A DNA stretch of 64,000 bases. It comes from Candidatus Doudnabacteria bacterium. Its GTDB lineage: Bacteria; Patescibacteriota; Doudnabacteria; UBA920; O2-02-FULL-48-8. The stretch is from contig JACPKU010000004.1 in NCBI GenBank assembly GCA_016186915.1, positions 3,168 through 67,167 of the forward strand, read 5' to 3'. Shown here piece after piece: positions 6,265-10,581 of the stretch. How positions within the stretch are numbered: the stretch's first letter is position 1; the number at the start of each line of letters is the position of its first letter. Below the pieces are notes generated by a model. That model made no database searches. It worked only from the letters and a program-made list of their open reading frames with translations, and was not told the origin of the DNA. The position numbers and the translations under genes were made by a program.

Positions 6265-6293
6265 TTGACAAGACACCCATTTTGTGCTAAGAT
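6265..6293 (+). promoter_or_regulatory. Sigma70-type promoter TTGACA-N17-TAAGAT with extended -10 (TGcTAAGAT)
   Basis: ttgacaagacacccattttgtgctaagat. It shares ttttgtgctaa(g/c)at with the promoter at 8552. Confidence 0.5.
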
Positions 6294-6444
6294 ATGGTGT
6301 TTGTTCTTTAAAATTGTTTTGGTCGCGAAGCGGTGCTGGTTTTAGAATTGAGATAATCGATGCTAGTATCAGCGCTGTTTCCGATGAACGGAACAGTGTT
6401 CCGGCATTGCGGTAGCCAATCCGCAGTGCATTTTAGGAGGAAGG

Positions 6445-7023
6445 ATGGAGTTTAAGAAGTTCATGGTGTCCATCAACGTCAGCGATGACAAGATGGACGA
6501 GCTCGTGCGGGCCGGGTTCCCCACGCAGCGTCCGACGTTCGCGGACATGCGTGCCCGCCGGCTGGCCCATGTCGAAGCGGCAGAATCGATTGGCCGCGAC
6601 GCCTTACGGCTGGACCGCGTCGATGACCTCGGCGAGATCCCTGACAGCGGGCGCGTGGTCTTCACGCGCGAAGGCCAGGAGAAAGTGTCCTTTGCCCAAG
6701 TGGCGAAGGACGCCAAGAAGCTCGGCTTCGCGATGAGCGCGGCCTACGTCGAGAAGGCCCCGGGCAAGTCGGCGCGTCTGCGGATCTGGTGGGAACGCGG
6801 CGAGGAAGCCGTGCCGGTTGAACCGACAGGTGCAATGCGCTTCCACCTGGACGGAATGTTGAAGAGGGCGTATCAGCACCTGTATGCCTTCGACAACCGG
6901 GACACGGATGGGTCGTTCACGTTCAACGCGTCGCACACGATGGACGAGAATGCCCGCCGTGGCGTGCGCGACCTGCGCATCGGGGAAGGCCGCATGGCCT
7001 GCCTCCTGCGCGAGGACGCGTAG
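6445..7023 (+). CDS. Hypothetical protein encoded by a GC-rich, compositionally foreign ORF (192 aa)
   Basis: Strong SD (ggagga) 5 nt upstream of the ATG. Codons end overwhelmingly in G/C (gag ctc gtg cgg gcc ggg ttc ccc acg cag cgt ccg), unlike flanking genes. No recognisable family. Confidence 0.5.
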   Translation: MEFKKFMVSINVSDDKMDELVRAGFPTQRPTFADMRARRLAHVEAAESIGRDALRLDRVDDLGEIPDSGRVVFTREGQEKVSFAQVAKDAKKLGFAMSAAYVEKAPGKSARLRIWWERGEEAVPVEPTGAMRFHLDGMLKRAYQHLYAFDNRDTDGSFTFNASHTMDENARRGVRDLRIGEGRMACLLREDA

Positions 7024-7113: not shown

Positions 7114-8529
7114 CTAAAAAATTTTATCTTCTTTTGAAACGATTGCTCCTTTAAATCTATCAAATACTGATTTCAACGTTCCCATATTCAATACTTCCTT
7201 TAAATCGTAAGTTTGTTTTTTTACCCAGGAAGGAAGCGGTTTATATTCGATCAAAGTAAATATATGAGCCAAAAAAGTGGTTGCGTAGCTGCCCTTAGGT
7301 AAGTCAAAACTAATAGCGAGTCCTTCAGGAAGCACCTTGTATTTTTGGATTTTTACTTTCACTTTTGTGGGGAGTTTAGGATCACCAAATCTAATAAAAT
7401 CGAAACGCCTAAGTGATCGCTGAAAATCTAAAGGAATTTTGTCCTTCTCTAGAAAAGTCTTATAAAGTTGTTTTGCTCCAGGGTTACTGCTCAAAGCAAG
7501 TGGAATAAATTCCTGAAATCCTATATGTTTTATGGCCATGAGTGACAATACCTTATTCGCCAAATAACTTGTATAAGCATAAACCCAAAGTTTGATTTGA
7601 TCTGGCATAGTCCTAAAAGCACTGACGTAATCTGATCGAAACTCTCTTAACGAATCCAACATTTGTAATTCATATCGAAATGTATAAGGATAGGGACTAT
7701 AAATTTTCTTCATTTCATTCCATTTACCAAAAGCCCCAGCGGCAGCTTGTCGCACTGATACAAAGAATGGAAGATCAAATTCACCGGGATCACAAAGATA
7801 CGAACGCAGGGCCTTTTCGTACTTTCCTTGTAATAGACAAAGTCCCCACCAATGAGTTAAGGTACGATTACCAAATCTTTGAAACCAATAGTAGTTCCAG
7901 AATCCTACTTTACTAATCTGTTCTAGTTTTTCTTTTATCTGATCTTCCTGCAATTCCCGTTCTGTTCTTATAAAAATTATAAACCGATTACCCCACAGCC
8001 CTCCTGTTTTTATGTGTTCGCTTGTGTATCTAAAATTTCTTAAAAAGAAATTAATAGCTTTGTGTGCTAAGACCGCTTCTGGCTTAACCCCGCTCATGGT
8101 TATAGTCTGCGCTGTTATCGCTTCTGCGTCCTTAATCCCTGCGCTCCCGACTTGTCTTTCTTTAATTTTTAAATTCGAACTCAAATCTTTTATTACTTCT
8201 AAAGTAGAAATTCCAACCTTTACCAAATCCGCGGCAATAAACGGTGTAGCGGCTCCTTGAATATTATCCGACGACTGATACTCAACACTGGCATAGTTAT
8301 TATCAGAAATAATTTCTTCTACAATAAAATCTAACGGCGACAACTTAATAAAACCCTGAGGTAAATTATCATCAGGGATTACAATTCCTATCTTTTTTAG
8401 GACACCTAGATTGTCAATTCTGGACTTTTTCTTGAATAATTCTGGGTACTGTACTAGTTGCTCGCTAAGAGCCTCTTGTTCTTTCTTCCACAAAGAAAAA
8501 GTATCCTGTCCATTGAGTTCCATAGGCAA
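7114..8529 (-). CDS. truD: tRNA pseudouridine synthase TruD/Pus7 family
   Basis: N-terminal SPLDFIVEEI (TruD motif I) and the catalytic-Asp motif VGSAGIKDAEAITAQT. Its 471 aa is longer than bacterial TruD (~350 aa), closer to archaeal/eukaryotic Pus7. Confidence 0.65.
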   Translation of the reverse strand: MPMELNGQDTFSLWKKEQEALSEQLVQYPELFKKKSRIDNLGVLKKIGIVIPDDNLPQGFIKLSPLDFIVEEIISDNNYASVEYQSSDNIQGAATPFIAADLVKVGISTLEVIKDLSSNLKIKERQVGSAGIKDAEAITAQTITMSGVKPEAVLAHKAINFFLRNFRYTSEHIKTGGLWGNRFIIFIRTERELQEDQIKEKLEQISKVGFWNYYWFQRFGNRTLTHWWGLCLLQGKYEKALRSYLCDPGEFDLPFFVSVRQAAAGAFGKWNEMKKIYSPYPYTFRYELQMLDSLREFRSDYVSAFRTMPDQIKLWVYAYTSYLANKVLSLMAIKHIGFQEFIPLALSSNPGAKQLYKTFLEKDKIPLDFQRSLRRFDFIRFGDPKLPTKVKVKIQKYKVLPEGLAISFDLPKGSYATTFLAHIFTLIEYKPLPSWVKKQTYDLKEVLNMGTLKSVFDRFKGAIVSKEDKIF

Positions 8530-8551
8530 AGTATACCCTACCTTTTAACCC

Positions 8552-8580
8552 TTGACAAAAGGGCGGTTTTGTGCTAACAT
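8552..8580 (+). promoter_or_regulatory. Sigma70-type promoter TTGACA-N17-TAACAT (extended -10 TGcTAACAT) driving a ~285-nt leader
   Basis: ttgacaaaagggcggttttgtgctaacat. No CDS follows until 8865. Confidence 0.5.
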
Positions 8581-8864
8581 GGCTAGTTGCGTACCCCGTC
8601 CTATCCTTGTGGTAGGCGGGGGTAGGCAACATAAGGTCGCTCGGTACATTTGCAAAAACTACCGGTCGTCAAACTCTGCTGAGTTTGCGACCTACGTGCT
8701 CGCGCCGTCGCGCTGCGCAGGTTAGTTTTGCAAAGCACCTCGCTTAAGAGAAAAAGGTAACGGAAGACCTTATGTTGCTTACAACGCAATAAGTTCTTTA
8801 CATATAATGTCTGTCCCGCCCGGTCGGATGACTGGGCGGGAGCAAGACCAATAAGAAAGGAAGG

Positions 8865-9479
8865 TTGATTGAAATGACCGCCCGTTTTGTGAGGTTGAAC
8901 AGTAAGGCTATTATTTCCGTAATCGCTTTACTTTCATTGTTAACCAACATGCAATTCGCATCAGAAGTTAACGCTGAAGTTCAAACCGAAAACAAAACTC
9001 GACAAGTCTTTGAAATCAAAAACTTTCCACGAATTACAATTCCCGCCATTGATGAATTGCCAGAAGATATGATAGTTGAACCAGGCGAAGTAAACCTCGA
9101 TACGCTTAAATTAAAAAATTCAGAAGTGCTAGCAGAATACTTGGCAAGCAAGCAATCTCCTTTGTCTGACAAGGCTAACTACTTGCTGAACCAGCGAGAC
9201 TGGAGATTGATTATTGCCATTTCCCAAGCCGAATCCCAGATGTGTAAAAGACAGTTGGGCTACAACTGTTGGGGCATCGGCGGCGGAGCTCATCGAAAAT
9301 ATCCAAACCTTGAGTTCGCAATTACTGACGCGCAAACCGTGATCGGTAAATACGTTGATAGTGGCGCAGATACTGCTAAAGAAATCCTGCCAAACTATGT
9401 CGGCTGGGATAACCAAAACTGGGTCTATGCTGTAAATGCCGTGCTGTACCAATTAGACCAGTTGCCAATTGAAGCATAA
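8865..9479 (+). CDS. Secreted protein with a lysozyme-like (SLT/GH23-like) ES motif
   Basis: Signal peptide/TM, and IIAISQAESQMC...NCWGIGGG, which resembles the lytic transglycosylase AIAxxES..G.G pattern. Paralogous to 9877..10581. Confidence 0.4.
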   Translation: MIEMTARFVRLNSKAIISVIALLSLLTNMQFASEVNAEVQTENKTRQVFEIKNFPRITIPAIDELPEDMIVEPGEVNLDTLKLKNSEVLAEYLASKQSPLSDKANYLLNQRDWRLIIAISQAESQMCKRQLGYNCWGIGGGAHRKYPNLEFAITDAQTVIGKYVDSGADTAKEILPNYVGWDNQNWVYAVNAVLYQLDQLPIEA

Positions 9480-9527: not shown

Positions 9528-9614
9528 TGGTGCCCGAGGAGGGAGTCGAACCCTCAATCCCGTAAGGGCAATCGATTTTAAGTCGATCCTGTATCCCAGT
9601 TCCAGCACTCGGGC
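9528..9614 (-). tRNA. tRNA-Leu (anticodon TAA), long variable arm
   Basis: Minus-strand sequence gcccgagtgctggaactgg...atcga-ctTAAaa-tcgat, a long variable arm, ggttcgactcc and CCA. Confidence 0.8.
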
Positions 9615-9718
9615 TTTGCTTGCACTTCGTAGCTCAAAGAGCGAAGAAGTGGAGGCCACGGCGGGATTTGCACGCCGATAGTACAGCCTACGGCTGACTA
9701 CGGGGCAGACCTGTTGAT

Positions 9719-9792
9719 TGGAGGCGTGAACGGGAGTTGCACCCGTCTAAAGGGTTTTGCAGACCCTTGCCTAACTGATCGGCCATCACGCC
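9719..9792 (-). tRNA. tRNA-Cys (anticodon GCA)
   Basis: Minus-strand sequence ggcgtgatggccgatcagttaggc..agggt-ctGCAaa-accct..gggtgcaactccc..cgcctcca. Confidence 0.7.
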
Positions 9793-9876: not shown

Positions 9877-10581
9877 TTGTTACTGTTGCTTATAGTAAAC
9901 ATGGACATTCTACATATTCAGAAACTAAACAAAATTTTCCTTAAAGCGACCCACGATAAGCTGCCAATCAGCTACAAACTCGGCGTGCTTGTTCTGTTAA
10001 TAAGTTTATTAGGCCTCAGCGCGCCTCATCAAACAATCGCCCTCGATTCCGAAGCAGAACTGCAAGCCATTGTCTTCGTCCAAGGCGACCAATATGAATA
10101 CCTCAATCTGCTGAAGGAGCTGGCCGAGAAAAATTATCGGATCGATAAACTGAAAAATGAACTGAACAAACAAAGAACTCTGGCCGGCGCCGTGCGAGTG
10201 TATCTGGAAGCTTACCGCTCGCCATTAGCTGGTCACGTCGAAACCCTGATTAAGGCCCGTAACTGGAAAAAGATTGTGGCCTTGGCCAACGCGGAAAGTT
10301 CCCTGTGCCGGAACTACCCGGAAACCACTGCCAACTGTTGGGGAGTAGGCGGTTCAGATTTATGGGTCATGGGCAGCAATTTGGATGAAGGCATTCTGGC
10401 CATGGATGAGTTTTTAATTACTTCTCCGAAAAAATCCGAAATAAAATATACTGATATGAGCTTTGAGCAAATGAACGGCCTATACAAACAGCCAGCCAGA
10501 GACCATTGGGTTGAAAACACTCTGATGATTTATAATGATCTGGAGGCTATCGAAAATAATTTGGCAGGGAACAGTATTTAA
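9877..10581 (+). CDS. Secreted protein, paralog of 8865..9479 (lysozyme-like ES motif)
   Basis: N-terminal TM helix, and LANAESSLC...NCWGVGG, aligning with the paralog's AESQMC...NCWGIGG. Confidence 0.4.
   Translation: MLLLLIVNMDILHIQKLNKIFLKATHDKLPISYKLGVLVLLISLLGLSAPHQTIALDSEAELQAIVFVQGDQYEYLNLLKELAEKNYRIDKLKNELNKQRTLAGAVRVYLEAYRSPLAGHVETLIKARNWKKIVALANAESSLCRNYPETTANCWGVGGSDLWVMGSNLDEGILAMDEFLITSPKKSEIKYTDMSFEQMNGLYKQPARDHWVENTLMIYNDLEAIENNLAGNSI

Follow-up and report, generated by a model that had tools for sequence, protein, structure and literature searches.

Stem-loops at the 5' terminus stabilise certain bacterial mRNAs, among them those with the ompA and aprE leaders, and in other phyla genes for cell-wall hydrolases stand under the ydaO/c-di-AMP riboswitch. 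The small genomes of the Candidate Phyla Radiation (CPR) are thought to be poor in regulation, and to our knowledge very few regulatory RNAs have been described from this radiation. The leaders of rrn operons and the lambda nut sites combine a boxB hairpin with a boxA element that is bound by NusB/NusE, and boxA also occurs in mRNA leaders, for example that of suhB (PMC5725501). The gamma-proteobacterial boxA consensus at such Nus-factor sites is GYTCTTTAANA (PMC5725501).

Here we describe a leader in the window, by which we mean the whole stretch of 64,000 nucleotides of Candidatus Doudnabacteria DNA that was analysed. With the rrn and lambda nut leaders it shares a strong promoter, a stem-loop, the core GYUCUUUA a few nucleotides later, and an untranslated RNA that is long and structured; in the window's second leader the box stands at +9. 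It differs from them insofar as the gene behind it encodes a secreted enzyme-like protein, and its hairpin has an invariant internal loop and no recognisable boxB, with no boxC identified; Nus binding is putative. Like ydaO/yuaA (c-di-AMP), it is a long leader with a multi-helix junction before the gene of a probable peptidoglycan-acting secreted protein, but it has no Rfam match (E <= 10), it lacks the pseudo-twofold architecture, and its junction is optional. As with the ompA and aprE stabilisers, a strongly transcribed mRNA has a helix starting 0-2 nt from its inferred 5' end, whereas the base and the internal loop of this helix are invariant in sequence, which mere end protection would not need. 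Finally, an accessory module carried by some of the leaders resembles REP/BIME and IS200/IS605 palindromic mini-elements in being small, structured, intergenic, flanked by short direct repeats, patchily distributed and found in more than one context. It differs from them in being single-copy in the sequence available, in its fixed orientation and insertion point within leaders, and in its conserved junction nucleotides and covarying helices, and no transposase was seen.

We favour, with moderate confidence in the explanation as a whole, a Doudnabacteria-specific, modular, cis-acting leader that would stabilise the 5' end, recruit Nus factors and partly occlude the Shine-Dalgarno (SD) sequence.

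Materials and Methods

Syntenic loci were reached via exact-protein look-ups; scanning genomes with the TruD protein as guide gave no match. Members of the leader family were gathered from the intergenic DNA of syntenic loci and then by a pattern scan of genomes and metagenomes with the conserved 5' part, and further members came from a look-up of closer homologues of the downstream protein. The covariance model (CM) of the accessory module (R2) was built from the window and L006 only. The hypervariable P3 and the diverged modules were unalignable by MAFFT and RNAalifold, and their conservation therefore rests on single-sequence folds and on this two-sequence CM.

Results

The strong promoter that had been claimed upstream of the leader is present, with 10/12 consensus matches and the TG extension besides (Table 1). 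Its -35 hexamer TTGACA occupies 8552-8557, the 17-nt spacer ends in TTTTG, and the extended -10 element TGCTAACAT lies at 8572-8580. From the spacing we infer that transcription starts at a conserved purine at about 8585-8586, which would give the RNA the 5' end (A)GUUGCGUA, five to six bases past the -10 element. We predict that 8581-8873 is the 5' untranslated leader of a transcript that encodes a secreted protein. The sequence-only reading had taken 8865 as the first credible start; the TTG at this position is not used, and it is the ATG at 8874 that is conserved instead (ATGAC.GC.CGTTTTG, MTARF...). On the complementary strand a promoter-like site of truD (TTGTCA-17-TATACT, 8530-8558) overlaps the leader promoter back to back, and thus both genes may share a divergent control region.

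Table 1. Features of the leader and of the gene behind it (positions in the window)
Feature	Position	Strand	Description or basis
Promoter	8552..8580	+	Near-consensus sigma-70-type: TTGACA-N17-TG-n-TAACAT
P1 5' strand	8586..8592	+	GUUGCGU at the transcript 5' end; invariant in 29/30 members
P2 hairpin	8594..8622	+	Base CCCC(G)/(C)GGGG invariant; upper stem covaries; loop variable
Junction UAGG and P3 5' arm (GCAACAUAAGGUC)	8623..8639	+	Corresponds to ggcaacataaggtc of the sequence-only reading
Accessory three-way-junction module	8636..8750	+	About 115 nt at the tip of P3; direct repeats GUCGCUCGG ... CCUCGCUUAAGAG
Module helices	Pa 8643-8647/8735-8739; Pb 8649-8663/8720-8734; Pc 8664-8692; Pd 8696-8718	+	Folds, CM
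P3 3' arm (GACCUUAUGUUGCUU)	8765..8781	+	MFE fold and complementarity
P1 3' (distal) strand ACGCAAU	8784..8790	+	Folds and complementarity scan
BoxA-like pyrimidine box GUUCUUUACAU	8793..8803	+	Match to the published consensus
P5 hairpin (GUCUGUCCCGCCCGGUC GGAU GACUGGGCGGGAGCAAGAC)	8809..8848	+	The cccgccc..gggcggg of the sequence-only reading; no U tract after it
Shine-Dalgarno region AAGAAAGGAAGG	8853..8864	+	Read from the sequence; conserved in L109 and L110
Downstream gene	8874..9479	+	201-aa secreted protein; N-terminal hydrophobic signal/anchor; invariant AES..C...NCWGIGG

The 284-nt stretch 8581-8864 folds at -134.9 kcal/mol, as compared with -87.3 +/- 5.0 for 200 dinucleotide shuffles (z = -9.55); the opposite strand folds nearly equally well (z = -9.0), so that energy alone does not give the strand. 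The GC content, described earlier as far above background, was overstated: with 51.8% it reaches only the 88th percentile of the window, where the mean is 45.4% (sd 5.8%). An Rfam/Infernal scan of the kind proposed by the sequence-only reading matched no catalogued family. With Rfam 15 at the gathering threshold the whole window yielded tRNAs only, the interval 8400-9000 at E <= 10 with permissive filters yielded only three sub-threshold chance matches to CRISPR repeats and no ydaO, and on eight other members no match overlapped the leader. ARAGORN found no tmRNA, and a tmRNA, or a tag-like frame with a stop in the hairpin loop, was rejected on these negative ARAGORN and Rfam results and on the frame not being conserved. 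Our literature search found no paper on Doudnabacteria together with such an RNA motif. The family is uncatalogued in Rfam, while its kind, the cis-acting leader, is already known.

Altogether 30 distinct members of the family were assembled, and the named records among them are all Doudnabacteria metagenome-assembled genomes (MAGs), with one exception labelled Saccharibacteria. Every member lies behind the same promoter, TTGACAAA...TTTTrTGCTAAnaT, and precedes the orthologous gene for the secreted protein, one per locus and always in the same orientation. A covariance model of the 5' hairpin recovers exactly one copy per locus, at 55-79 bits in the sense direction versus 14-25 bits in the antisense direction, and it detects no further copy in the 64-kb window. 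The untranslated structured leader spans 130-320 nt across the family, and the element within it from about 50 to 230 nt. Its shared core consists of the 5' hairpin, usually the P1-P2-P3 junction, the GYUCUUUA box, usually the AAAGGUCUAACC box, and P5; the minimal members (L012, L045, L048 and L049) are reduced to a simple hairpin whose internal loop is small. In L109, the closest relative (78% identity to the window in the downstream protein), the promoter, the hairpin, the box and P5 can all be aligned with their counterparts in the window, and P3 is short. We regard it as solid, by this comparison of relatives, that the structured, strand-specific and conserved 5' leader behind a strong promoter represents a functional RNA. 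The earlier claim of a cis-regulatory RNA or non-coding RNA thus stands as regards a conserved structured 5' leader, but not as regards the junction being its conserved heart. Matches to the 5'-part pattern in other phyla had neither the promoter nor the remaining parts of the element and were attributed to chance, and a phage origin was rejected, the 5'-hairpin pattern being absent from viral contigs. L037 carries, beside its leader copy, a group I intron among tRNA genes (RF00028, 74 bits; 1144-1380, - strand).

The P1 5' strand has two possible partners, a local GCAAC (8627-8631) and the distal ACGCAAU (8784-8790). The local GUUGC/GCAAC pairing closes an invariant internal loop (GUA / (G)YAG) together with P2, and the segment AGGCAACAU that carries GCAAC is invariant in the members as well. 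In the CM alignment of the 30 members, 97.4% of the P2 cells are paired, and 7 pairs show changes on both sides (48 cells); none of 500 shuffles did as well, slid controls were 41-53% paired, and an independent MAFFT alignment gave the same picture. The upper stem of this inverted repeat covaries, half-sites are not kept and the spacing of the arms varies, and its interpretation as a DNA operator was therefore discarded. That the hairpin base and the internal loop never vary hints at a specific binding partner, one for which the explanation that we favour makes no provision. The sequence-only reading had allowed that the leader might show neither covariation nor conservation in relatives and fold no better than shuffled controls; on checking, the structure is conserved in relatives, the covariation is real and the energy lies far below that of the shuffles.

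When GUUGCGU instead pairs with the distal ACGCAAY to form P1, the segment CAACAU opens the hairpin P3. The resulting P1-P2-P3 three-way junction is the single-sequence minimum free energy (MFE) fold in 21/30 members. An automated scan found the distal P1 partner to be 7/7 complementary in 19 of the 26 non-minimal members, and its 8 variants differ only by wobble-compatible changes (G-C/G-U or U-A/U-G), which fits an RNA read from the + strand and not its complement. The long-range pairing of 14 nt that had been called perfect is present, but it is not perfect: GGCAACATAAGGTC at 8625-8638 matches 8766-8779 in 13/14 positions by strict complement, and a wobble pair extends it. The wider arms (8622-8651 versus 8753-8782) are 80% complementary, and in the MFE fold of the window's leader the pairing becomes a 17-bp stem that encloses further helices. 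Farther out, the P3 arms of different members bear no sequence resemblance and yet always remain complementary, and L112 shows a compensatory change (GCAGCG/CGCUGC) even in the conserved part.

At its tip, P3 of the window carries the accessory module, with flanks GUCGCUCGG ... CCUCGCUU and with UAC (8693-8695) and A as junction nucleotides. Of the three enclosed hairpins that had been described, GGTCGTCAAACTC/GAGTTTGCGACC (8664-8692) and the GC-rich one (8696-8718) were borne out. The third, ccggta...taccgg, was not, since relatives conserve longer helices, Pa and Pb, formed from those bases. The module occurs in 5 leader lineages of about 30 (the window, L006, L019, L047 and L110), with a degenerate remnant in L028, and it is absent from all other members. 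The CM finds it at the expected places in L110 (E ~0.01) and L019 (E 0.04), and marginally in L047 (E 0.79), where the alignment rests mainly on the flanks; independent single-sequence folds of the homologues give the same topology with other helix sequences. A strong match outside the leaders is in L021 (1834-1952, - strand; 57.6 bits, E 5e-13), where it exactly fills the spacer between tRNA-Cys (1748-1821) and tRNA-Leu (1955-2041), antisense to the tRNAs, and where the locus's own leader is without it. Absence from L109 and presence in a tRNA spacer indicate that the module is not an obligatory sensor of the leader. On these comparisons the module is real and structurally constrained, dispensable for the leader and able to live elsewhere; it would be a regulatory add-on of particular lineages, or else a small element settled in a tolerant P3 loop.

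That the module is a selfish or mobile element (MITE-, REP- or PATE-like), inserted beside UCGCU in the P3 loop, with a structure made up of the element's own hairpins and with no part in gene regulation, we consider somewhat unlikely; such an origin would bear on nothing but the module and would not conflict with the explanation that we favour for the core. Its patchiness among close relatives speaks for it, as do the UCGCU direct repeats that flank every copy, L109 having just one UCGCU, in its P3 loop at the corresponding position. The modules of the window and L006 are 89% identical despite host proteins of 31-48% identity, while that of L110, a closer relative than L006, is far more diverged; and in its second context, in L021, the module lies beside another small insertion, which a duplicated end of a tRNA encloses. 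Against this, only one copy exists in the 64-kb window, scanned with filters off, none was found elsewhere in about 170 kb of related loci except in L021, and none in viral contigs. Moreover, in leaders the module always starts 2-4 nt past GGCAACAU and in constant orientation, its helices have diverged through compensatory substitutions, the pattern of an RNA long held under constraint, and no transposase was seen among 15 proteins scanned against Pfam. A sub-pattern of the module gave 59 matches in viral contigs, which were set aside as chance matches in GC-rich phages.

Two side observations concern L021 and L008. In L021 (2044-2183) a 21-nt copy of the tRNA-Leu 3' end (TGGTGCCTAGGGAGGGAATCG) is repeated about 140 nt away and flanks an insert of about 120 nt, resembling the scar of a small element integrated at a tRNA end. 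In L008 (1-260, against L006 3800-4064) a second assembly of the L006 type diverges right after Pd and shows two extra CUCGCUCC motifs before the contig ends, which reflects either a difference between strains or an artefact of assembly at the module.

Downstream of P1 lies the pyrimidine box, whose core GYUCUUUA is exact in 15/30 members and has one mismatch in 13/30. In the window it reads GTTCTTTACAT, matching the core in 8/8 positions and the full consensus, a gamma-proteobacterial one, in 9/11; consensus positions 9-11 are not kept. The box is promoter-proximal (+51 to +212 from the -10 element) and stands beside a stem-loop, at 1-9 nt from P1 by automated scan. Because this spacer varies, the box is best taken as a sequence signal and not as the U tract of a terminator; a terminator formed by P1 and the U-rich box was rejected on the same variation and on the conserved G and C inside the box. 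No rRNA genes were found in the window or the fetched loci, and no NusB among the window proteins scanned.

A near-identical twin of the promoter, TTGACAAGACACCCATTTTGTGCTAAGAT, stands at 6265-6293 (+ strand) and is followed at +9 by UGUUCUUUAAAA, a perfect box of the boxA-like kind, and a leader of about 130 nt. In relatives this second promoter is kept upstream of the orthologous gene, with a looser, GUACCUUUAYAAAA-like box. Two differently built leaders thus share the box and the promoter type, which points to a common trans-acting reader, and NusB/S10 is the obvious candidate.

The GC hairpin noted earlier just before the SD sequence is there (8814-8841), and the SD region behind it is rich in purines. 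It is followed by GCAAGACC and no U tract, and a scan of the + strand from 8581 to 8873 for intrinsic terminators returned none. Relatives have a helix of unrelated sequence at the P5 position, with a 3' strand that ends at the SD sequence and often takes in its first Gs, and with a 5' strand that begins in or just after the SD-like box. In most members this SD-like element, AUAAAGGUCUAACC, comes next after the pyrimidine box; the window has UAAUGUCUGUCC instead. A leader peptide was rejected, there being no conserved start codon past the SD-like AAAGG, and inspection of the sequence revealed no -35 element at usable spacing for a second promoter at the TATAAA-like sequence past the box. The pyrimidine box is complementary to AAGAA in the SD region, a pairing that appears in the MFE fold of the window's leader, and also to the conserved AUAAAGG box, so that its conservation could stem from base pairing alone. 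In predicted folds the SD sequence is partly occluded by P5 and the box; P5 pairs with the SD sequence over short stretches, for which covariation was assessed by eye.

This raises the alternative of a purely base-pairing translational switch without Nus, in which GYUCUUUA would serve as an anti-SD sequence alternating between the real SD and the decoy AUAAAGG. In MFE folds the box pairs with the decoy in about ten members and with the SD sequence in about five, including the window, and at the base of P5 the SD sequence is joined through its GG to the CC of CUAACC. However, the pairings are of 4-6 bp, AU-rich and of a generic pyrimidine/purine kind, no compensatory changes were seen, and pairing with the SD does not require G1 and A8, although both are conserved in the box. 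The window and L006 are without the decoy, and a similar box at +9 to +20 of the second, differently built leader suggests a shared trans factor. We judge such a switch unlikely.

The protein encoded behind the leader, which has a paralogue at 9877-10581, had no sequence match in Pfam, NCBIfam or PDB. An AlphaFold (AF2) model shows a confident all-helical C-terminal domain, and Foldseek gave one notable match, to an endolysin of C. difficile in its glucosaminidase domain, with a probability of 0.99 but E = 0.3. Since this is the one notable fold match and no sequence match accompanies it, the earlier description of the secreted protein as "lysozyme-like" is plausible and weakly supported; the protein is probably peptidoglycan-hydrolase-like. 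On the other side, truD (7114-8529, - strand), the exact product of which is annotated from a Candidatus Doudnabacteria MAG, adjoins the leader, and the gene order of S1-domain protein, secreted protein, secreted protein and truD is kept in relatives.

Discussion

According to the explanation that we favour, the leader would act in cis on its own mRNA. First, the 5'-terminal helix, which starts at the first bases, would shield the end of the transcript. Secondly, the hairpin and GYUCUUUA would together constitute a "boxB-boxA" site of the rrn/lambda type that loads NusB/S10 on RNA polymerase, and Nus loading would carry the polymerase to the end of the untranslated leader. Thirdly, the pyrimidine box and P5 would keep the SD sequence partly closed, setting or gating the initiation of translation. 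Between the two states of the 5' region a co-transcriptional switch may operate, from the local hairpin to the three-way junction, and the accessory module would not be needed for the core function. A further reading, which we hold only tentatively and consider rather doubtful, is that of a Doudnabacteria nut-like signal on protein-coding genes, composed of the invariant 5' hairpin and a boxA-type box and read by Nus and a lineage-specific RNA-binding factor, plus a portable RNA domain of about 115 nt.

The multi-stem junction had been described as typical of riboswitches and ribozymes, a description that is not supported, as the stems belong to an optional module that has no Rfam match and is not the conserved heart of the leader. 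In a riboswitch, the junction or the internal loop of the 5' hairpin would be the aptamer of a small molecule, for instance a signal from the cell wall or a second messenger, the ligand deciding whether box and SD sequence close. Helices that covary around conserved junction nucleotides (UAC, GUGYUC...YGCRCA), mutually exclusive pairings of GUUGC with the local or the distal GCAAC, and a partly occluded SD sequence would all suit such a device, and we counted the hydrolase genes under ydaO in other phyla in its favour. Nevertheless, the module is missing from about 24/30 orthologous leaders, the closest relative included, it also sits antisense in a tRNA spacer, minimal members retain only the simple hairpin, and at E <= 10 no Rfam family, ydaO included, matched. 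Furthermore, the single gene context implies that there is no regulon, which also argues against a riboswitch. The part that is universally present, P1'/P2 with the internal loop, covaries but is small, and the complex junction is optional. We thus regard a riboswitch as improbable.

Least probable, in our judgement very much so, is a stand-alone trans-acting sRNA running from about 8585 to the U-rich stretch at about 8800, with the downstream gene reached by read-through only: its 5' and 3' ends pair (P1) ahead of a U-rich stretch, as in 6S, SRP or Y RNAs, and the promoter has the strength typical of stable RNA genes, but the distance from P1 to the box varies, the stem encloses a multi-branch structure, the length ranges more than fourfold between members, ARAGORN and Rfam were negative, and the element always directly precedes the same gene, with its orientation unchanged, where the lack both of a canonical terminator after the structure and of a second promoter for the gene makes a discrete small transcript unlikely.

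With 30 members, covariation and strand specificity, the leader adds a lineage-specific structured RNA to the CPR. It belongs to the mRNA of a secreted protein resembling a cell-wall enzyme, and such proteins could matter for an episymbiotic lifestyle. Two testable ideas follow, namely that boxA-type signals act on protein-coding transcripts of the CPR, and that a structured module of about 115 nt is portable. If the latter is true, the module would move between the P3 loops of leaders and tRNA spacers, either as a sensor or as a selfish structured element.

The surroundings of the leader offer some observations of their own. The spacer from tRNA-Leu (9528-9614) to tRNA-Cys (9719-9792) in the window (9615-9718, - strand) is 104 nt long and structured, as against about 10 nt in L004 and L006. 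On the tRNA strand it contains a boxA-like GCUCUUUGA (9642-9634) and a T-arm-like CGGCGUGCAAAUCCCGCCG, and it may represent what is left of a tRNA, or else a further small insert. Past the twin promoter and its leader (6265-7023, + strand), the SD sequence AGGAGGAAGG precedes an ORF of 192 aa that belongs to no known family and has a GC content of 65% and a GC3 of 0.83, compared with a GC3 of 0.31-0.53 in neighbouring genes. Its syntenic orthologues in L006, L009 and L010 (28-48% amino acid identity) have a GC3 of 0.75-0.85, a persistent, foreign-looking codon usage in a vertically inherited gene. The public calls of the GC-rich gene beside truD in L004 (5429-6178) and L005 (5478-6128), which show a GC1 of about 0.8 in place of a high GC3, seem to be on the wrong strand.
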